UHGV virus genome: UHGV-1550841
DNA from: a virus
DNA: 10,154 nucleotides
Direction: 5' to 3' (one strand)
The notes below the pieces were generated by a model. It did no database searches. It had not been told where the DNA came from and worked only from the letters and a program-made list of their open reading frames with translations. This document shows positions 1-7,061 of this stretch, one piece after another. Position numbers and translations under genes: made by a program. Numbering within the stretch: the stretch's first letter is position 1; each line of letters opens with the position of its first letter.

Positions 1-351
1 GCACAGGCAGAACAGAAAGAGGCCGATGCAAAATTGCGTTCGCTGAAAGAACAGGAGAAAGCGACCAATGAACGTGAATCGCAGCGTGCTCTCGATAAGG
101 CGCGCAATGATGCTCTTGATGCTGCCGCTCGCGCTGGCAGGTTGCAGCAACAGCTCGTTGCCATCCGTGAGCAGCTCATGCAGTATAACGCCACTGTCGG
201 CGCTGGGTCGTCAGCCGCAGACACCGGGGTTTTGCTTGCCGACGTGCTCAGCAAATCTCTCGAGCGAAACCGACAGCTGGCAGAGTACGCTGACCGGGCC
301 GCCGAAGCCGGACGAGTCTGTGAAAAGCAGTACGATTCACTGACCAGGTGA
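1..351 (+). CDS. Rz-like inner-membrane spanin (i-spanin), C-terminal part; 5' end lies outside the window
   Basis: Frame 1 is open from the window edge to TGA at 349-351. Ala/Gln/Glu/Arg-rich coiled-coil-like sequence with a Cys near the C-terminus (RVCEKQY), as in lambda Rz. Contains an embedded out-of-frame lipoprotein ORF (68-343), the characteristic Rz/Rz1 arrangement. Confidence 0.45.
   Translation, partial: AQAEQKEADAKLRSLKEQEKATNERESQRALDKARNDALDAAARAGRLQQQLVAIREQLMQYNATVGAGSSAADTGVLLADVLSKSLERNRQLAEYADRAAEAGRVCEKQYDSLTR
68..343 (+). CDS. Rz1-like outer-membrane lipoprotein spanin (o-spanin), embedded in the Rz-like gene in another frame
   Basis: Translation has a hydrophobic signal peptide ending in the lipobox LAGC (MMLLMLPLALAGC), then a Ser/Pro-rich mature region. 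Entirely nested within the 1-351 ORF. Start is uncertain: 68, or the internal ATGs at 107/110. Confidence 0.45.
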   Translation: MNVNRSVLSIRRAMMLLMLPLALAGCSNSSLPSVSSSCSITPLSALGRQPQTPGFCLPTCSANLSSETDSWQSTLTGPPKPDESVKSSTIH

Positions 352-380
352 CATGGCATTTTTCATGGTACTGATTTCCG

Positions 381-390
381 GTGACGGTAT
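381..390 (+). repeat. GTGACGGTAT 10-mer copy 1 (candidate integrase arm-type site)
   Basis: Exact 10-mer. Further exact copies at 603-612 (+), 838-847 (+), 928-937 (+) and 1181-1190 (-), plus a 9/10 copy at 633-642 (-). Confidence 0.4.
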
Positions 391-432
391 ATAAAACGGT
401 ACGGTGAAAAGCGGCTGTGATAAACTTGTTAT

Positions 433-469
433 CACTCAATTGGTTATGTCTATCGTAAATAATTGAGTG
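433..469. repeat. Perfect 9-bp inverted repeat CACTCAATT-N19-AATTGAGTG (candidate att core or protein-binding site)
   Basis: Arms at 433-441 and 461-469 are exact reverse complements. Lies between the lysis cassette and the integrase, flanked by GTGACGGTAT repeats. Confidence 0.35.
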
Positions 470-523
470 GGAATGATTAACAGCTAACTCATAGCAAATC
501 ATTTCTATTCAGATGTCAACTTA

Positions 524-555
524 ACCCTCTGTTTTTGCAGAGGGTTTTTGTTTTT
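524..555 (+). terminator. Rho-independent terminator downstream of the Rz/Rz1 cassette
   Basis: Perfect 8-bp stem ACCCTCTG (524-531) / CAGAGGGT (538-545), 6-nt loop, then TTTTTGTTTTT. Confidence 0.6.
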
Positions 556-602
556 ATGTATTCATTTCTATTCACTCTACACCATATTTTTTGGCGGTAC
601 AG

Positions 603-612
603 GTGACGGTAT
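603..612 (+). repeat. GTGACGGTAT 10-mer copy 2 (candidate integrase arm-type site)
   Basis: Exact 10-mer, 57 bp upstream of the integrase GTG start and abutting an operator-like palindrome. Confidence 0.4.
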
Positions 613-626
613 TACCTTAAAGGTAT
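612..626. promoter_or_regulatory. Operator-like palindrome TTACC-TTAAA-GGTAT (9/10 to TTACC-N5-GGTAA) upstream of int
   Basis: Overlaps a possible -10 (TATACT, 624-629) about 40 bp upstream of the integrase start. Confidence 0.3.
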
Positions 627-632
627 ACTCTC

Positions 633-642
633 ATACCGTCAT
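633..642 (-). repeat. ATGACGGTAT (9/10 copy of the GTGACGGTAT motif, inverted orientation)
   Basis: Plus strand reads ATACCGTCAT. Forms an inverted pair with the copy at 603-612. Confidence 0.3.
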
Positions 643-668
643 GAAAATGGTTTCTATACGGGTGAATT

Positions 669-1925
669 GTGCTTACCGATACAAAATTAAAAAACCTCAA
701 GCCACAGGACAAACTGTACAAAGTTTCCGATCGTGACGGGCTGTATGTGGCTGTGCTTACGTCAGGCACGGTCTCGTTTCGCTACGACTACCGTATCAAC
801 GGTCGCCGCGAAACGCTGGTAATCGGGCAGTATGGGCGTGACGGTATCAGTCTGGCAGAAGCGCGAGAAGAACTGATTGCTGCAAAGAAGCTGCTTAAAG
901 CAGGCCAGTCACCGGCTGCGGCTAAACGTGACGGTATCAAAAAGATTCGTGGTGCCGAGACGTTTGCGGTACATACCGACAGTTATATGAAACACGTCAT
1001 CCTGGCTGACAGTACCCGCGCAATGAAACAGGCGGTGATCGACCGTGACATACTTCCGGTTCTTGGCAATAAAATGATGGCTGAAATTACCACATCGATG
1101 GTTCGTGATTTGTGTGACCGGATTGTCGAACGCGGTGGCCGGGCAACAGCAGTGCAGGCCAGGGAGATCATCAGCAGCGTATACCGTCACGCCAATGACC
1201 GTGGTCATGGTTTGTTTAATCCTGCGGCTGACATTAAACCTTCGTCTATCGCCATATTTAAACCACGAGAGCGAACACTGACACCAGAAGAAATTGGCCT
1301 GTTCTTCCGCACGCTGGATGCCATTGGTGCTATGGGCACTATGAAAATGGCTTTAAAGCTGGTGCTTATCACTATGGTTCGTAAAGGCGAATTCACCAAC
1401 GCAACGTGGGATGAAATAGATTTTAAAAAATGGACATGGACAATTCCTTCAGACCGCATGAAGGGAAGCCGGGCGCACGTTATTTACCTGCCTAAACAGG
1501 CTCAGGATATATTGGTCGGGTTGCAGATGTGCGCTGGTGGAAGTGAATATCTGGTTCCTGGTCGTTACAATTTCCGGAAGCCATTATCTAATGCCGCGCT
1601 GAACTCTCTGATCGACAGAACGGTGAAAATAATAAATGAAGATGGTGAGCATATTCAGGGCTTCACCGTACACGATATGCGCCGTACAGCCAGTACGTTG
1701 TTGCATGAGGCTGGTTATCCTTCAGACTGGATTGAAAAGGCTCTGGCACATGAGCAGAAAGGTGTGCGCGCCGTATATAACAAAGCGGAATACGCCAGAC
1801 AGCGCGCCTACATGTTGCAGCAGTGGGCCGATATGATTGATTCCTGGATTAACGGGGAGCATACGGATCTGATTCCGTTCTCCCCGTCGAAGTTTGAGAG
1901 GTGGATGGAAGACAGTAATAAATAA
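669..1925 (+). CDS. int: Tyrosine site-specific integrase, P4-type (arm-binding N-terminal domain plus catalytic domain)
   Basis: 418 aa. N-terminus LTDTKLKNLKP...GLYVAV...SFRYDYR fits the P4-type integrase arm-binding domain. C-terminal region has the HxxR motif (VHDMRRTAST) and conserved Tyr region. GTG at 669 is the only start available (in-frame TGA at 663-665); SD is weak. Stop TAA 1923-1925. Confidence 0.9.
   Translation: MLTDTKLKNLKPQDKLYKVSDRDGLYVAVLTSGTVSFRYDYRINGRRETLVIGQYGRDGISLAEAREELIAAKKLLKAGQSPAAAKRDGIKKIRGAETFAVHTDSYMKHVILADSTRAMKQAVIDRDILPVLGNKMMAEITTSMVRDLCDRIVERGGRATAVQAREIISSVYRHANDRGHGLFNPAADIKPSSIAIFKPRERTLTPEEIGLFFRTLDAIGAMGTMKMALKLVLITMVRKGEFTNATWDEIDFKKWTWTIPSDRMKGSRAHVIYLPKQAQDILVGLQMCAGGSEYLVPGRYNFRKPLSNAALNSLIDRTVKIINEDGEHIQGFTVHDMRRTASTLLHEAGYPSDWIEKALAHEQKGVRAVYNKAEYARQRAYMLQQWADMIDSWINGEHTDLIPFSPSKFERWMEDSNK
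838..847 (+). repeat. GTGACGGTAT 10-mer copy 3, inside the integrase coding sequence
   Basis: Exact 10-mer; extended match GTGACGGTATCA shared with the copy at 928. Confidence 0.35.
928..937 (+). repeat. GTGACGGTAT 10-mer copy 4, inside the integrase coding sequence
   Basis: Exact 10-mer; extended 12-mer GTGACGGTATCA identical to the copy at 838. Confidence 0.35.
1181..1190 (-). repeat. GTGACGGTAT 10-mer copy 5 (inverted), inside the integrase coding sequence
   Basis: Plus strand reads ATACCGTCAC. It encodes different amino acids from the other in-gene copies, so the repeat is a DNA-level feature. Confidence 0.35.
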
Positions 1926-1927
1926 TT

Positions 1928-2587
1928 CTATCCTTCCTGGACTTTGGTAAGCGTCAGATTTCCGCAGAACACTGCGCCGGTGTCGATGTACATTTGGTTT
2001 GCATACACCAGTGGGTGATGTGCTGGCGTATGACCGAAGATGAACAAATCGGCACCGGTTATCTCCGAGACAATACCGTCCTGCGCGTCGCTAACCCGCT
2101 CACGATTCCATATCACCATTTCTTCCGGTACTGGCTTATCGAATGCGTATTCGTTGTGCGGGTAGTCTGCGTGGCAGATGACGACCTTCTTATTGCCGGT
2201 AACCAGTTCGATAATCATCGGGAGGTTGGCAACCTTTGGCAGAAGGTATTTGATTTGCACATCCTGCTCAGAATCAAGTTGGTGCCACCATCCACCGCCG
2301 TTTGACATCCAATGTCCGAAACTTCCGCCGTTGACCAGTGCATCCAGCATCATCTGCTCATGGTTGCCACGAACAGCTCGGAACCACGGCATAGTAATCA
2401 AATCCAGGCATTCGACGTTTTCAGCGCCGCGGTCAACAAGGTCACCAACGGAAATAAGTAAATCGCGCGCCGGGTCGAATGAAACTTTGTCGAGTTCGTT
2501 CATCAGCAGCGTGTAGCACCCATGCAGATCGCCGACGACGAAGATATTGCACCAGTCAGCGCCATTGATGCGTTGATATAGGTTCAT
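1928..2587 (-). CDS. Ser/Thr protein phosphatase, PP-lambda-like metallophosphoesterase
   Basis: Translation from ATG 2587 ([12 protein letters not shown]...) shows the three phosphoesterase signature motifs GDLHG, GDLVDRG and GNHE. The longer ORF start at 2707 is rejected because ATG 2587 overlaps the upstream gene stop (ATGA). Confidence 0.85.
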
Positions 2588-3234
2588 GCTGCACGCTCCC
2601 GCCCCTGGTTGTCTATTGGTGACACCGGAGCATTGCTGAATGCATTTGTTAATCCTCCAATATCCAACGCGTATCCAGGGTGTAGTTGCACTGCCGGGTC
2701 TTCGCACTGATTACCCCAAACATCGAAGCCATGAGACGTCTGGCGGGCGAACAGTTCAATGCGAGAAACATCGCCTAACAATTGCACAAGTTTTTCACGA
2801 ACGATATCTGGTTTTCTTGAATGCTCAAGCCGCGGTGCGGTAAATGACTGAACGATCCCTGCATTAATGCGCGTAGGTAGTTTTCCCTTTACCGCAAACA
2901 GGCAATCTTCACTATTGGCGCGAGTCATGTGCCCCATACCCATAACCAGTTTATCTGGTTGTCGACTACCACATTTTATCCACGTGAAGCCCTTCATGGT
3001 CATCAGACGGAATCCCCAGGCTTCAACAACTTTTAGTGCTTCGAGTGGTTGTGTTGGCACCCACCACATGGCCAACAGACAGTTTTCATCGGCCAAATCC
3101 CACACAGGAAGGCGGCAGATATCCAGCACACTCATAACCGGATATTTAAAACCGGCACCGCGATTACCATCTGCGGCTTTGTCCCGGTATACCCAGGGTG
3201 GATCTGCATAGATTAGTGTGTATTTCTTAGTCAT
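2584..3234 (-). CDS. MT-A70 family N6-adenine DNA methyltransferase (DPPW motif), orphan, no adjacent restriction gene
   Basis: Translation [14 protein letters not shown]... carries the DPPW catalytic motif near the N-terminus typical of MT-A70/phage adenine methyltransferases. ATG at 3234 is preceded by a G-rich SD-like sequence; the alternative GTG at 3246 is less likely. Stop overlaps the phosphatase start. Confidence 0.8.
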
Positions 3235-3526
3235 AAACCACCCCACAACATCCTATGCCGCTATAGTCGCCACGGCGAAGGCCGTTACCTTTTGTGATAC
3301 ATTGGTCCCTGCGAACCGCGATCCTTGCACGTTCAACATCACCAGAAGCAACATCCATACACTGAAGCCAAAGGTGAGCGGCAATGCGGAATTGCCCTTT
3401 TTTCTCTCTTTCAATCGCGCGTTTTTCGATCTCTATCGCCGCAGGAGTAACGGCGACAATCTTTGACGGACTGCGCATTGAAACCTTATTCATGTGATAT
3501 TTTTCAAGTCGGCTTAACTTTCTCAC
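3227..3526 (-). CDS. Hypothetical protein (99 aa from GTG 3526; alternative ATG start at 3493)
   Basis: ORF in operon orientation filling the gap between the AlpA-like gene and the methyltransferase; its 3' end overlaps the methyltransferase start by 8 nt. GGGGG SD-like sequence upstream of GTG 3526. No recognisable family. Confidence 0.3.
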   Translation of the reverse strand: MRKLSRLEKYHMNKVSMRSPSKIVAVTPAAIEIEKRAIEREKKGQFRIAAHLWLQCMDVASGDVERARIAVRRDQCITKGNGLRRGDYSGIGCCGVVYD

Positions 3527-3635
3527 TTAATCCAACCCCCTCTGAAAATTAATGCCAGCAGATAAAGCCATGCTGAAACAGAGGCCAGGAATAAGTACCA
3601 TCCTGACCATTTGCTCCAGTGCCTTAGCAGCGCAC

Positions 3636-3884
3636 TCATGCAGCGTTGCTCACGGGACGATATACACGTTGCTGAACAGGAGGCTTTTTACCCTGGAACT
3701 CTGCCGGGCTTGCTGCCTGACGTTCATCAAGCCAACGCTCAACTTCATCACGGTTCCATGCGCAGCGTTTATCGGTGATATACCAGCGTTTAGGAAATTC
3801 CCCTGCGCGCTCCATACGGTCGATAGTGCTCCATGACAGTGGCACCACCGCCAGGAGTTCTTTCTTACCTAATGCACCTTTCAT
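3636..3884 (-). CDS. AlpA/Xis-like small DNA-binding protein (putative excisionase or prophage regulator)
   Basis: 82 aa. The segment LLAVVPLSWSTIDRMERAGEFPKRWYITDKRCAWNRDEVERWLDE matches the AlpA/excisionase-type winged-helix pattern. Good SD (AGAGGT) 5-6 nt upstream of ATG 3884. Confidence 0.65.
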   Translation of the reverse strand: MKGALGKKELLAVVPLSWSTIDRMERAGEFPKRWYITDKRCAWNRDEVERWLDERQAASPAEFQGKKPPVQQRVYRPVSNAA

Positions 3885-3933
3885 GAATACCTCTCTTGGT
3901 TGCAGTGCGGCGCACGTGGCGCCGCGGTGGTGG

Positions 3934-4851
3934 TTACATAGATGTTTCGTTTAATTCTTCCCGACGAACGCTGTAAACGTCGGTGGCTTTTGCCAGCAGT
4001 TCGTCATCATCTGAAAGTTTTTGTGCAATGTATTTGTAAGCCTTATCCAGTTCGGAGACAGTGCTGTAATTCATCGCTGCGCTGGTAAAGGCCATCAGCA
4101 TTTCTTCTGGATCACGGCTATCCGCTTTACGCGTTTGCTCATCATGCTTTTTCACTGGTTTAGCGTTGATCAGACTGTTCATGCTGGATGCTGTGCCGTG
4201 CTTTGCCTGACTTCTTGGAGTTACGTCACGTTCAATAATGTCAGGTGAGTCGATATATTTACCTTCCATTTCCTCAGCTGTGGCTTGTTGACCAATCTCC
4301 GGCCATGCTTTACGTAATGCCTGTGCCTCTGCGCATTTTGCCAACTGCGCATAAGGGCGCTTTTTCCACATGGCATTTGGTGCCGATGTGTCACGCCCCC
4401 CAGTTGCATAGTTCTCAATCCAGTATTCTTTGGCGCTAAACTCTACGATTTCCCCGCTTGCCATTCGCTTGCTGACGGTGTACTTACACCACTGAGGGAA
4501 GGTAACCTCCACGCCTGAAAGCGTTTGTGTTACATCTGGACCGAACTCAGGTTCATTAGCGCCTGCGTAATCGCCGGAACGGTAGGCCTGAATGCGATAA
4601 AGTCCAATGCCAGGCATGACCACGTCGCGCCATTCATTCTTTCCACTCTTCGAGTCTTTAACACTCATTGGTACCAGGTGTACCGGCTTAAGAAGAGGAT
4701 CGAGTTGACGCGCCCGGCAGTAATCGACTGCCATCATTACCGATTCATCTTTTGCCCCAGGGTAAATACTGTTTTTCAGAGCGCTCCATGTAACTTCATC
4801 GATTCCCCGAATAGCCAACACATCATTGGTGATTGCAATTTCGTTGCTCAT
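3934..4851 (-). CDS. recT: RecT/Bet-family single-strand annealing recombinase
   Basis: Translation from ATG 4851 (MSNEIAITND...). The region NAMWKKRPYAQLAKCAEAQALRKAWPE resembles the conserved RecT/Bet C-terminal core. ATG overlaps the TGA of the upstream exonuclease gene (ATGA), the classic exo-recT pairing. Confidence 0.8.
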   Translation of the reverse strand: MSNEIAITNDVLAIRGIDEVTWSALKNSIYPGAKDESVMMAVDYCRARQLDPLLKPVHLVPMSVKDSKSGKNEWRDVVMPGIGLYRIQAYRSGDYAGANEPEFGPDVTQTLSGVEVTFPQWCKYTVSKRMASGEIVEFSAKEYWIENYATGGRDTSAPNAMWKKRPYAQLAKCAEAQALRKAWPEIGQQATAEEMEGKYIDSPDIIERDVTPRSQAKHGTASSMNSLINAKPVKKHDEQTRKADSRDPEEMLMAFTSAAMNYSTVSELDKAYKYIAQKLSDDDELLAKATDVYSVRREELNETSM

Positions 4852-5669
4852 ACGTACATATCCTGTTTGCGTGCCCACTCAGGGCGTTTAATAATTTCCA
4901 CGCCGCCCCATTCATCGCTGATGCGGCATTCGTGATAGGTATTCAGATCCCGGCGGAACAGAGCGTGCCCGGCATCGACATCCGGCGCATCCAGCTCGAA
5001 CACGCGTACCGGATACCGACCACAATCAATGCTTTCGCTCACGGCAAGAAAGAAAAAACCATGCGGCTGACCAGTAACCCTCATTGCGCCTTCGCGGTAC
5101 ATTGCGTCCTGCACGTGGTAGCGGAATTCCTCGATGTGACGTGCAAAACGGTCCATATCTGCAACCTTTTTCACGTCGATGATCACGTTGTGCTCGTTCA
5201 GCCATTTGTCTGGACGAATTCGGCACAACTCACCAGTCTCTTCATCGTTCCAGTACATTGATGCTTCGCAGTAACCAGGTGCTTCCAGCATCCAGCGTGC
5301 CGCCGGGTGAGCCATTGCGCTATCACGCATCAGCTCCAGTTTCCGCCACTGCTCGGCATCAAGTACCGCAATCCCCATATCCGCTACATCACGAAGAAAT
5401 GCTTCTTCGTCAGCTTTACCTTGTTTCGTCCGACGATCGAACTTTGGTGAAACAATGAAGCGTTTGTCGAATTCTCCAGGCTCCAGAAGCAGACAGTGCA
5501 ATGCAGTTCCCATATCTAGTGCAGACTTTTTCTCTTCGTCTTCTGGTGCTGCCTGAACCCATTTAAGAAGCGCCGGATTCTTGGCAACCATGTCCAGTTG
5601 CGACTTACTCACGCCGTCACCGGCGTGGTAGTCCTCATTGCTGATGTCGAAATAGATGCCAGTATTCAT
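4848..5669 (-). CDS. RecE-like PD-(D/E)xK exonuclease (partner of RecT)
   Basis: 273 aa. N-terminus FDISNEDYHAGDGVSKSQLDM is typical of RecE-like/PDDEXK exonuclease domains, with an IIDVKK-type motif downstream. Translationally coupled to recT. Confidence 0.75.
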   Translation of the reverse strand: MNTGIYFDISNEDYHAGDGVSKSQLDMVAKNPALLKWVQAAPEDEEKKSALDMGTALHCLLLEPGEFDKRFIVSPKFDRRTKQGKADEEAFLRDVADMGIAVLDAEQWRKLELMRDSAMAHPAARWMLEAPGYCEASMYWNDEETGELCRIRPDKWLNEHNVIIDVKKVADMDRFARHIEEFRYHVQDAMYREGAMRVTGQPHGFFFLAVSESIDCGRYPVRVFELDAPDVDAGHALFRRDLNTYHECRISDEWGGVEIIKRPEWARKQDMYV

Positions 5670-5872
5670 AACTTAACCTTGTATTCGTTCTGCTTGTTGG
5701 AACGGGTTCCATCGTGGAAATATATTGCGCTCCTGGTTACCTCTACCCATTTGCGACGTTCAAGCTCAGCGATGAACCAAGAAACCTTCGATCTTGAGAT
5801 ACCAAGAATCTTTGCCATATCTCGGATGCTGTGTTTTCCACCTCGCAGCAATGAGAGGAGTGTTGGTTTCAT
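5666..5872 (-). CDS. Small helix-turn-helix (winged-helix-like) DNA-binding protein, unknown role
   Basis: 68 aa. HTH-like segment SIRDMAKILGISRSKVSWFIAELERRKWVE. SD GAGGGA 7 nt upstream of ATG 5872. ATGA overlaps with both neighbouring genes. Confidence 0.5.
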   Translation of the reverse strand: MKPTLLSLLRGGKHSIRDMAKILGISRSKVSWFIAELERRKWVEVTRSAIYFHDGTRSNKQNEYKVKL

Positions 5873-6342: not shown

Positions 6343-6357
6343 TTACCGTTGGGGTAA
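6343..6357. promoter_or_regulatory. Operator OL-proximal: perfect palindrome TTACC-GTTGG-GGTAA
   Basis: Perfect half-sites. Abuts the proposed -10 of the leftward early promoter. Confidence 0.5.
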
Positions 6358-6385
6358 TAATTATGCGTATCTGGTTTGATGTCAA
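6357..6385 (-). promoter_or_regulatory. PL-like sigma70 promoter for the leftward early operon (-35 TTGACA at 6385-6380, 17-bp spacer, -10 AATTAT at 6362-6357)
   Basis: Consensus -35 hexamer read on the minus strand; 17-bp spacer; moderate -10. Bracketed by two operator palindromes. Confidence 0.4.
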
Positions 6386-6430: not shown

Positions 6431-6455
6431 ATAAAAAAGCCGCCAGAAGGCGGCT
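6431..6455 (-). terminator. Rho-independent terminator downstream of the repressor gene (minus strand)
   Basis: Stem AGCCGCC (6438-6444) / GGCGGCT (6449-6455) with AGAA loop; on the minus strand it is followed by a run of T (plus-strand AAAAAA at 6433-6438). Confidence 0.6.
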
Positions 6456-6476
6456 TACTTACTGAAAAATATGATT

Positions 6477-7061
6477 TTATTGTTTGTTTTTTTCGTTCTG
6501 GTTGATGACAAATTCAATGTAACTTTCGATCTTTGCTTTCTCGGTTTCGGGTAACAATGCGTAGCGCGAGCGGTCATAGTTGATAGTCGCAGGGTCGTGC
6601 GGGTGAATCAGTAGTTCATAGCCGTGACGCCCGAATGCGGATGCAACATTCTCCAGGGTGGAAATGGAAACGCTGACCTCATTGTTTAACAGGCGGCTGA
6701 TTGTCACCTGGGCGACGCCGGATGCGCGGTGAAGTTTTCCCTGTGTTGAAAGGTCGCGGCTTTCGCTCATCCAGCGTTCCAGGTTGTGAGCCGCCAGCTG
6801 ACCTATATCGCTCGGGCCGACAGGCTGAAAACCCTCCTGAGAAAGCGAACGATCAATATCAAGCCAGTTACGGGGTTTATTGGCGGCAGCTTCAATTTTT
6901 CGCGCAACCTGGTCGCCGATAACCTTCTTGCCAAGAGCCCAGCGGTTTACCAGATTTGCCTGAGTTCCAAGTTTTTCTGCCATCCGCGTCTGAACACCAT
7001 TGAATTCACGGTCGATCAAGTCGTTGAGATTTTGCCTGCGGACGTCCTGGATACTTTTCAT
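6477..7061 (-). CDS. Immunity repressor candidate with two tandem HTH (XRE-like) domains and no recognisable LexA/S24-type autocleavage domain
   Basis: 194 aa. N-terminal HTH-like segment (TRMAEKLGTQANLVNRW) and a second HTH-like segment (LHRASGVAQVTISRLLNNEVSVSISTLENVASAFG). Transcribed divergently from the Cro-like gene; flanked by operator palindromes on both sides and followed by a hairpin terminator. Confidence 0.75.
   Translation of the reverse strand: MKSIQDVRRQNLNDLIDREFNGVQTRMAEKLGTQANLVNRWALGKKVIGDQVARKIEAAANKPRNWLDIDRSLSQEGFQPVGPSDIGQLAAHNLERWMSESRDLSTQGKLHRASGVAQVTISRLLNNEVSVSISTLENVASAFGRHGYELLIHPHDPATINYDRSRYALLPETEKAKIESYIEFVINQNEKNKQ

Follow-up and report, generated by a model that had tools for sequence, protein, structure and literature searches.

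A methyltransferase gene and a lambda-type phosphatase gene that overlap at the end of a phiV10-like early operon are probably independent accessory genes

Where the leftward early operon of a temperate phage ends, the stop codon of an adenine methyltransferase gene overlaps the start codon of a phosphatase gene, which raises the question of whether the two products work together or merely became neighbors. A first-pass annotation of this locus had proposed the former, suggesting that a translationally coupled orphan methyltransferase and Ser/Thr phosphatase may act jointly in host takeover or anti-restriction. The analysis covered the whole stretch of 10,154 nucleotides of virus genome UHGV-1550841 (hereafter the window), the relevant features of which are collected in Table 1. 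The most probable answer, held with good confidence, is that these are two independent accessory genes whose adjacency resulted from cassette exchange, with no joint function.

Table 1. Features of the window bearing on the methyltransferase - phosphatase locus
Feature	Position	Strand	Remarks
attP core region	462..476	plus	ATTGAGTGGGAATGA; same as the 3' end of guaA
P4-type tyrosine integrase gene (int)	669..1925	plus	Pfam Arm-DNA-bind_3, Phage_int_M, Phage_integrase
Segment swapped relative to phiV10	1909..2581		phosphatase gene and last ~17 nt of int; blastn
Lambda-type (NinI-like) binuclear metallophosphatase gene	2587->1928	minus	219 aa; ATG...TAG; all catalytic motifs
ATGA stop/start overlap	2584..2587	minus	methyltransferase TGA (2586-2584) on phosphatase ATG (2587-2585)
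Group-specific C-terminal methyltransferase tail	2587..2691	minus	aa ~182-216; diverges from the PA8 enzyme past aa 187
GGGAG, putative Shine-Dalgarno-like element	2596..2600	minus	8 nt upstream of phosphatase ATG, within methyltransferase CDS
MT-A70 family (class beta) N6-adenine methyltransferase gene	3234->2584	minus	216 aa; ATG...TGA
DPPW motif of methyltransferase	3193-3204	minus	residues 11-14
PerC-family small protein gene	3227..3526	minus	99 aa; stop overlaps methyltransferase start by 8 nt
38-aa membrane protein ORF	3523..3639	minus	PHROG 17484, E=6.8e-26; annotated in phiV10 and PAS61
AlpA-family regulator / excisionase-like protein gene	3636..3884	minus	Pfam PF05930
Predicted promoter-like site, TTGACA-17-AATTAT	6357..6385	minus	consensus scan, 10/12 matches; heads leftward string
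Terminator-like hairpin	6437..6456	minus	just past repressor gene; 8-bp stem, 6 GC pairs, T run (consensus scan)

The window belongs to a phiV10/epsilon15-like (Uetakevirus) temperate phage of E. coli. Its nucleotide identity with annotated phage and E. coli prophage records was 98.7-99.3%, and the group formed by phiV10, TL-2011b and PAS61 was 96-99% identical to it over int, methyltransferase, PerC, AlpA, repressor and early genes. The Uetakevirus podophage PAS61 carries the same phosphatase cargo as the window, which differs from it in the RecT segment (4183-4828) and by an extra 68-aa wHTH gene (5666-5872). The remaining ORFs of the window encode the integrase, PerC, AlpA, RecT, a DUF3799 nuclease, the repressor, DnaT-like and lambda-P-like replication proteins and a DUF1064 protein. 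No restriction endonuclease gene was found among these ORFs by profile searches and PADLOC, the methyltransferase neighbors being PerC and the phosphatase, and the first-pass statement that the methyltransferase lacks a cognate restriction gene was thus borne out. The locus is not a Type II restriction-modification system, since it has no restriction-type nuclease and only the methyltransferase is matched by PADLOC, through generic Type II methyltransferase models. Neither the phosphatase nor PerC matched a PADLOC model, in a library that consists of defence systems and does not extend to anti-defence genes.

Assignment of the methyltransferase to the MT-A70 (DPPW) family, already made in the first-pass annotation, was well founded. 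Pfam profile PF05063 matched over positions 1-172 of 172 (E=2.6e-22; 80 bits vs a cut-off of 23.9), and PHROG 359 'DNA methyltransferase' gave a further match (E=3.5e-120). Motif IV lies near the N-terminus, in the permuted beta order, and aligns with the DPPW of ciliate MT-A70 PDB chains; PDB sequence matches included ciliate MTA1-type MT-A70 proteins (E=4e-13) and METTL3 (E=6e-6). The protein was full length in 77/80 related loci and the motif was found in all 80. SAM-dependent methyl transfer to adenine N6 would be expected from this family membership. Class beta methyltransferases function as dimers, and targeting by METTL3-METTL14 and MTA1-MTA9 needs a partner subunit (PMC7544214). The window enzyme shares Pfam family and motif order with these complexes and has significant matches to their solved structures, but it is a bare 216-aa catalytic domain devoid of RNA-binding or partner-binding extensions, and no gene for an inactive paralogous subunit lies close by.

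The phosphatase likewise fell into the PP-lambda type to which it had been attributed on account of its GDxHG, GDxxDRG and GNHE motifs. It was matched by Pfam Metallophos (E=1.1e-15) and by PHROG 246 'NinI-like serine-threonine phosphatase' (E=9e-108), and it was collinear with lambda phosphatase (NinI / ORF221; PDB 1g5b) over residues 1-217, with 66.8% identity (E=9e-100) and all motifs shared. These are GDLHG at residue 19, GDLVDRG at 48, GNHE at 74, HAD at 139 and GH at 185, with metal-binding and catalytic residues D20/H22, D49, R53, N75/H76, H139 and H186; motifs, the two downstream histidines and full-length similarity together make the protein a lambda-type Ser/Thr phosphatase. For both proteins the family matches are much stronger than chance could produce. 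NCBIfam models PRK11439 (266.6 bits vs an equivalog cut-off of 326) and PRK09968 (222.1 vs 332) matched below their thresholds; the enzyme is a relative of chromosomal E. coli PrpA/PrpB and no equivalog of them. A maximal ORF of 259 aa, from a GTG at 2707, was rejected as the gene: alignment with lambda phosphatase begins at the ATG at 2587, and near-identical phage and RefSeq copies are annotated as a 660-nt gene.

Both genes are contained in a tightly packed leftward string. Overlaps occurred at 7/8 of the consecutive junctions tallied (4, 4, 31, 4, 4, 8 and 4 nt), using ORF coordinates together with the 38-aa ORF taken from the phiV10/PAS61 annotation, which overlaps its neighbors by 4 nt at each end. 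In the phiV10 annotation, a terminator separates the repressor gene from the leftward gene that follows it, and no minus-strand terminator-like site was predicted between the promoter-like site and the phosphatase stop at 1928. The first-pass placement at the distal end of an early operon is in agreement with this organization, and so is the overlap that it had described, the interval 1928-3234 spanning both genes exactly. Both features of a translationally coupled pair, namely a stop/start overlap and a candidate ribosome-binding site within the upstream gene, are present. The GGGAG element was conserved across all cargo variants, and its position suggests that it may serve as Shine-Dalgarno sequence for the downstream gene; transcription and translational coupling of the whole string can likewise be proposed from the gene layout. 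The 4-nt overlap is real, but it is not distinctive. Among 36 species-level methyltransferase loci, counted as those with an intact ORF, overlaps of 1-10 nt occurred upstream in 28/36 and downstream in 20/36, whichever the neighbor.

Comparison with phiV10 located the variable part of this arrangement. By blastn, window positions 49-1908 and 2582-4182 aligned with phiV10 and the intervening stretch did not, phiV10 having there 203 nt with DUF1382. All cargo types begin at a common GCAGCATGA boundary; the GGAGCGTGCAGCATGA boundary precedes the phosphatase here, DUF1382 in phiV10 and an 82-aa ORF in a third arrangement (locus L100). In other phages the slot contains DUF1382 or an orf82+AntA cassette. 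The C-terminal methyltransferase tail, which is matched by PHROG 16888, was common to all three cargo variants. On the other side the slot is closed by int, convergent with the phosphatase gene and separated from it by 2 nt between stop codons. The pair had been described as lying next to int and att in a typical accessory-cargo position. Proximity to int is correct, but the att core (~462-476) is on the far side of int; the guaA stop lies 15 nt beyond position 462, where homology to the E. coli chromosome starts, and the prophage is located directly downstream of guaA. Similarly, the cargo position applies to the phosphatase, which occupies the swapped slot, and not to the methyltransferase, which is a backbone gene.

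The distribution of the phosphatase among related loci bears on the question of pairing. It was found in 143 of ~561 closely related E. coli loci (>=80% identity), or about 25%. A set of 80 IMG/VR loci gave DUF1382 in 46, the phosphatase in 29 (36%) and AntA-type or other cargo in 4, one contig ending within the methyltransferase. The phosphatase is hence missing from about 64-75% of near-identical phages, in which unrelated genes stand at the same boundary. None of the 36 loci from other species had a phosphatase next to the methyltransferase; genes found downstream included, among others, RusA, NinH, Q, a LexA DNA-binding domain and DUF968. Conversely, lambda-type phosphatases normally reside in nin regions without this methyltransferase, and all 24 phosphatase alleles with <84% identity lay away from any methyltransferase. 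Lambda NinI itself has its gene between ninH and Q, within the nin region of the rightward operon, whereas the window gene closes a leftward operon by int, and the nin-type alleles retrieved were 222 aa long as against 219 aa here.

A functional pair of orphan DNA adenine methyltransferase and phosphatase, co-translated for host takeover or anti-restriction, therefore seems very unlikely in view of this patchy occurrence and of the generic nature of the overlap; for the phosphatase, the absence of any PADLOC match points the same way, within the scope of that library. Some observations would nevertheless fit such a pair, namely the ATGA overlap with its upstream Shine-Dalgarno-like element, the absence of a restriction gene from the window and the integrity of both genes, which are under purifying selection (phosphatase dN/dS 0.08-0.15 vs diverged alleles; motifs intact in 79/80 loci). 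Moreover, three more diverged relatives (L172, L177 and L178) kept the methyltransferase-phosphatase-int order and the overlap, with methyltransferases 51-81% and phosphatases 84-95% identical to those of the window; for one of them, L177, E. coli genomes contained nothing closely similar. Because order and overlap were kept in these relatives, the juxtaposition is not a single recent accident and could be mildly favored. Gene overlap in the last part of a phage early operon should not be taken for functional pairing: three or more unrelated cargos can follow this one ATGA boundary.

Since the phosphatase is one of several interchangeable inserts behind the methyltransferase, we regard the arrangement as ordinary phage mosaicism and not as a two-gene system. 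Both genes come from well-described families, and near-identical copies already bear the same annotation in phage PAS61 as well as in E. coli prophages numbering in the hundreds. The methyltransferase is a fixed backbone gene, always preceded by a PerC-family gene in this phage group, and the slot from its stop to the convergent int stop is a recombination hot spot. The phosphatase gene resembles lambdoid ninI, with 79% DNA identity to that of phi80 and HK225, and it starts at a short boundary, CAGCATGA, common to the methyltransferase 3' end and to nin-type ninI starts; nin-type phosphatase genes begin at ...CAGCATGAGC. A likely course of expression can be proposed from this layout. After induction or infection, transcription from the leftward promoter would cross the recombination genes and AlpA, continue over the 38-aa ORF and PerC, and end with the methyltransferase and the cargo. 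Ribosomes stopping at the methyltransferase UGA could reinitiate at the overlapping AUG, aided by GGGAG, and such reinitiation would express any gene present in the slot. The phosphatase would presumably act as a Mn2+-dependent phosphoprotein phosphatase on host or phage phosphoproteins and may be dispensable for growth, as is lambda ninI (PMC10695390). Apart from this non-essentiality, a literature search on the biological role of NinI-type phosphatases gave unrelated phage metallophosphoesterase and kinase papers. Near-isogenic natural phages with and without the phosphatase, such as those compared here, could show what purpose a lambda-type phosphatase serves in a phage.

The methylation target had been given as unknown in the first-pass annotation, within an anti-restriction framing that overlooked a published relative. 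Methyltransferase M.EcoPA8orf6770P (gp5 of Stx2a phage PA8) is 83% identical (90% positives) to the window enzyme over aa 1-187. This group of methyltransferases has a disputed substrate, GATC in DNA or 16S rRNA. The GATC assignment of M.EcoGV, from E. coli O104:H4, reportedly originates from Fang et al. 2012. GATC was methylated upon overproduction of that enzyme, according to its quotation in PMC10810198 and PMC6602927. By homology with M.EcoGV, DNA methylation at Dam-like GATC sites is the likeliest activity of the window enzyme, with roughly even chances of being the correct one. GATC frequency was rejected as a clue to the target, the window containing 35 sites vs 40.6 +/- 5.8 expected. 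By itself, the PA8 enzyme showed hardly any activity on DNA, whether or not this came from a dam- host, and together with PNB-2 (gp6), the product of an overlapping gene upstream, it preferred 16S rRNA >13-fold over DNA; DPPW was required for its phenotype (PMC10810198). By analogy, 16S rRNA is a real alternative target for the window enzyme, though a minority one in our estimation.

A more specific proposal would be that the window enzyme is mainly a 16S rRNA m6A methyltransferase, that the upstream PerC protein replaces PNB-2 as targeting subunit, and that the activity tunes prophage induction without protecting DNA. The two systems share, besides the similar catalytic subunit, a leftward early region near int, DPPW near the N-terminus of an MT-A70 protein and an upstream gene overlapping the methyltransferase start, and DUF1382 lies downstream of the PA8 methyltransferase as it does in phiV10. 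PerC was found directly upstream of the methyltransferase in 80/80 PerC-seeded phiV10-type loci, and the adjacency recurred in 5 further species-representative genomes of four other genera, including a different, nin-like context. The PerC assignment rests on Pfam PF06069 (30.1 bits vs a cut-off of 22.6) and on PHROG 868, which covers positions 1-99 of 99, whereas PNB-2 belongs to PHROG 1680. No relationship between PerC and PNB-2 was detected, BLASTP giving no alignment and hhalign a probability of 0.2% (8-sequence PerC alignment vs PNB-2); a longer PerC-like protein from Buttiauxella also gave no BLASTP alignment with PNB-2. Known PerC/Pch proteins are activators of transcription, which argues against a role as targeting subunit, as does the extra ORF between PerC and the methyltransferase in L172 and L178.

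The C-terminal tails point in the same direction. The C-terminal ~27 residues of the PA8 enzyme were suggested by its authors to be needed for PNB-2 binding, and even for that enzyme the modified rRNA base is unmapped (PMC10810198). In the window enzyme the alignment ends at residue 187 and the last ~29 residues are unrelated, so that the suspected PNB-2-binding tail is replaced, and an adjacent PNB-2 homologue is likewise missing. The window tail was nearly unchanged in L178 despite 51% core identity there. Covariation gave no support to a tail-PerC interface: tails at other PerC-associated loci were unrelated to the window tail, and methyltransferase tails did not co-vary with PerC presence. 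Differences in downstream gene (the phosphatase in the window) and in phage type (PA8 is a Stx Sepvirinae phage, the window phage a Uetakevirus podophage) complete the comparison. An rRNA enzyme steered by PerC is consequently an unlikely reading. We consider it rather doubtful, too, that PerC and not the phosphatase is the partner of the MT-A70 protein, with small upstream proteins (PNB-2, PerC-like) acting as exchangeable targeting subunits. If this were true, such subunits would steer one shared catalytic core towards rRNA or specific DNA sites, tuning prophage induction or host expression, and the phosphatase, by its known side activity as a 2',3'-cyclic phosphodiesterase, might contribute a function directed at RNA in the phages carrying it. 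With another upstream protein and another C-terminal tail, the window phage is in any event a natural variant for studying how targeting is set.

Such a side activity leads to a last possibility, namely that the phosphatase acts on nucleic acids or nucleotides, for example by healing RNA 2',3'-cyclic phosphate ends after attack by a host anticodon nuclease. Both bis-pNPP and nucleoside 2',3'-cyclic phosphates are substrates that lambda phosphatase can hydrolyse (PMC2190708). However, no kinase or ligase module was found near the phosphatase among the window ORFs and the gene is optional cargo, which makes this extremely improbable. The same very low probability covers its extension to a nucleic-acid phosphatase combined with an RNA-directed methyltransferase, loosely parallel to the bacterial Pnkp-Hen1 repair pair, the more so as the methyltransferase family makes N6-methyladenine whereas the Hen1 mark is a 2'-O-methyl group. 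In favor of such a reading, the phosphatase weakly resembles the phosphatase module of bacterial Pnkp (NCBIfam TIGR04075, E=1e-10) and PDB 4j6o ('Metallophosphoesterase', E=8e-9).

The association of the methyltransferase and phosphatase genes was found to be a case of ordinary mosaicism among phages, located at a cargo slot (the stretch between the methyltransferase stop and the int stop), and both genes were already known. The DNA of the window represents the early region of a temperate podophage of the phiV10/epsilon15-like type (Uetakevirus). Window 1800-3600, queried against phage and E. coli records, shared 98.7% identity with Escherichia phage vB_EcoP_PAS61, and E. coli chromosomal prophages reached 99.3%. 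The records of both already name a 'serine/threonine protein phosphatase', an 'MT-A70 family methyltransferase' and a 'PerC family transcriptional regulator'.

Translation of the window bore out the coordinates and motifs (DPPW; GDxHG / GDxxDRG / GNHE) of the first-pass annotation. The methyltransferase carries DPPW at residues 11-14, matches the entire Pfam MT-A70 profile (E=2.6e-22) and is treated here as a putative N6-adenine enzyme. The phosphatase, with GDLHG, GDLVDRG, GNHE, H139 and H186, matches lambda protein phosphatase from one end to the other (PDB 1g5b; E=9e-100, 66.8% identity) and is predicted to be a lambda-type Mn2+ phosphatase; it fell below the NCBIfam equivalog cut-offs of chromosomal PrpA and PrpB. 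As had been noted, no restriction endonuclease gene was present among the ORFs anywhere in the window. The assignment of both genes to the distal end of a leftward early operon seems fair, no terminator-like site being predicted on the minus strand from the promoter-like site to the phosphatase stop.

Features of the window and PerC-family genes upstream of MT-A70 genes in prophages of other genera
Feature	Coordinates	Strand	Remarks
Rz tail	34-351	+	
attP	between Rz and int	+	
int	669-1925	+	
phosphatase	2587-1928	-	219 aa
methyltransferase	3234-2584	-	216 aa, ATG...TGA
PerC	3227-3526	-	
38-aa membrane ORF	3523-3639	-	
AlpA	3636-3884	-	
RecT, DUF3799 nuclease, small wHTH protein, orf104	in that order after AlpA	-	
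promoter-like site	6385-6357	-	
terminator-like hairpin	6456-6437	-	
repressor	6477-7061	-	
PerC-family gene	L020:3567-4010		
PerC-family gene	L022:3546-4004		
PerC-family gene	L023:3492-4004		
PerC-family gene	L024:3637-4002		
PerC-family gene	L030:3756-4001		

In blastn, phiV10 aligned with window 49-1908 and 2582-4182 but not with 1909-2581, which is replaced there by 203 nt. These 203 nt encode a DUF1382 protein of 64 aa, and here too the start shares 4 nt with the methyltransferase stop. The region had matches in 642 records of E. coli complete genomes; identity was at least 80% in about 561, of which only 143 covered the phosphatase. All 80 IMG/VR loci retrieved using the PerC protein held PerC and the methyltransferase, and their cargo was DUF1382 (46 loci), the phosphatase (29) or a third or other type (4), one contig stopping within the methyltransferase. 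The third cargo, examined in locus L100 (L100:3440-4663) and also present in L105, L106 and L114, comprises an 82-aa ORF (PHROG 9805) followed by a 216-aa AntA-type antirepressor. The 82-aa ORF of L100 starts at the same ATGA boundary as the window phosphatase, and GGAGCGTGCAGCATGA directly precedes the start of all three cargos. The methyltransferase was full length in 77/80 loci, with DPPW in 80/80; phosphatase motifs were intact in 79/80 loci, and its dN/dS against diverged alleles was 0.08-0.15. The accessory-cargo position proposed for the pair thus held for the phosphatase, swapped for DUF1382 or the AntA cassette, but not for the methyltransferase, present in every locus.

Phosphatase alleles at least 95% identical to that of the window occurred only in the methyltransferase-int slot context, and 24 alleles below 84% identity lay beside none of the tested neighbour genes. 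The starts of these 24 read ...CAGCATGAGC, the CAGCATGA boundary being common with the slot cargos. At the DNA level, the window phosphatase shares 79% identity with ninI of phi80 and HK225. The simplest reading is that recombination at this short conserved gene-boundary sequence would have moved a nin-type phosphatase gene between the methyltransferase and int.

The methyltransferase-phosphatase-int order and the overlap were also found in three more diverged phages (L172, L177 and L178; 51-81% identity to the window for the methyltransferase, 84-95% for the phosphatase), and no close counterpart of L177 was found in E. coli genomes. The gene order is therefore of some evolutionary age. In L178 (L178:1791-2504), the methyltransferase core is a different, 51%-identical allele, yet the last ~35 residues of the enzyme are nearly those of the window. 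Such a pattern suggests recombination within the methyltransferase gene and a conserved tail-plus-boundary segment rather than a co-inherited methyltransferase-phosphatase unit, and implies a putative joint near the WGNQC motif. The tail, which contains the Shine-Dalgarno-like element of the downstream gene, matches a PHROG of its own (16888, without annotated function). It is worth noting that this C-terminal tail (~35 aa, window 2587-2691) is conserved throughout this phage group.

The junction itself is an ATGA, the methyltransferase TGA overlapping the phosphatase ATG, with GGGAG 8 nt upstream of this ATG, within the methyltransferase coding sequence. Overlaps occurred at 7/8 consecutive junctions of the leftward gene string, tallied from ORF coordinates plus the 38-aa ORF. 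One genome per species was also scanned, giving 40 methyltransferase loci, 36 with an intact ORF. Overlaps of 1-10 nt were found with the upstream gene in 28 of these 36 and with the downstream gene in 20, and a ...AA* ending was common among the methyltransferase genes. The families of the neighbours were numerous and unrelated (upstream: PerC, DUF1317, NinB, DndB, YbcO, HNH and others; downstream: RusA, NinH, Q, LexA DNA-binding domain, DUF968, C5 methylase and others), and a phosphatase was the neighbour in none of the 36. The methyltransferase-phosphatase overlap is generic. Ahead of its ATG, the phosphatase frame continues without a stop for a further 120 nt (2588-2707, minus strand), where it runs across the methyltransferase tail in a different frame. 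An equivalent open frame precedes the downstream gene of L100 and that of L178; composition probably accounts for this.

With a swappable phosphatase, a generic overlap and no such neighbour in the species scan, nothing indicated that the two enzymes act together, as had been suggested in terms of host takeover or anti-restriction; the observation of an overlapping pair was confirmed and its interpretation partly supported. Lambda ninI is non-essential (PMC10695390), and no established role of NinI-type phosphatases in phage biology was found in the literature searched. Nucleoside 2',3'-cyclic phosphates are further substrates of lambda phosphatase (PMC2190708), so an action on nucleic acids is conceivable, but nothing in our data supports it.

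The closest studied relative of the methyltransferase is M.EcoPA8orf6770P of Stx2a phage PA8 (83% identity over residues 1-187). Alone, this enzyme showed near-background activity on DNA, dam- DNA included; in purification it is accompanied 1:1 by PNB-2, which the overlapping upstream gene encodes, and this holoenzyme prefers RNA over DNA by more than 13-fold and favours 16S rRNA in 30S subunits, the modified base being unmapped (Gong, Chakraborty and Koudelka, PMC10810198). The enzyme also raised spontaneous prophage induction, for which DPPW was required, and its tail was suspected to contact PNB-2 (PMC10810198). The related M.EcoGV methylated GATC in vivo on overproduction, according to the passages citing it in PMC10810198 and PMC6602927. 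The last ~29 residues of the window enzyme are unrelated to the PA8 tail, and the upstream PerC-family protein had no detectable similarity to PNB-2. With tail and upstream protein both different, the chances that the target is DNA, at a GATC-like site, are put at about even, and rRNA appears rather improbable. GATC frequency in the window was as expected and thus gave no pointer. What this group of methyltransferases really modifies, and with which partner, is a question already raised in PMC10810198.

A PerC-family gene directly upstream of and overlapping an MT-A70 gene is found again in prophages of Dryocola, Buttiauxella, Lonsdalea and Acerihabitans, in a nin-like context with RusA or a LexA-type DNA-binding protein downstream; in three of five such loci from other genera, the PerC-like protein bears an extra N-terminal wHTH-like domain. 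Since PerC alone among upstream families recurs widely in the sampled loci, it can be speculated that PerC, and not the phosphatase, is the methyltransferase partner; however, another ORF lies between the two in L172 and L178.

Regarding integration, prophages in E. coli chromosomes sit directly downstream of guaA. Chromosomal homology starts at window 462, 15 nt ahead of the guaA stop, which places the attP core upstream of int at ~462-476, matching the final 15 nt of E. coli guaA. The window has the circular or virion layout, Rz, attP and int lying side by side. The claimed proximity to int and att was correct for int, whose 3' end adjoins the phosphatase (stop codons 2 nt apart), but not for att, ~1.45 kb away with int between. 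A terminator-like hairpin (523-546, plus strand) lies between attP and int, within the stretch 352-668.

Further differences were observed elsewhere in the early region. For the N-terminal two-thirds of RecT (4183-4828), blastn gave no match in phiV10 or PAS61, although the flanks are 96-98% identical. Nuclease and RecT are annotated as a single fused 1761-nt gene in phiV10, whereas in the window they are separate ORFs with a 31-nt overlap. A 68-aa MarR-like wHTH ORF (5666-5872, minus strand), with a 4-nt overlap at either end, is missing from phiV10 and PAS61 (no homology to window 5670-5864) and looks like a further small cassette inserted at ATGA-type boundaries.
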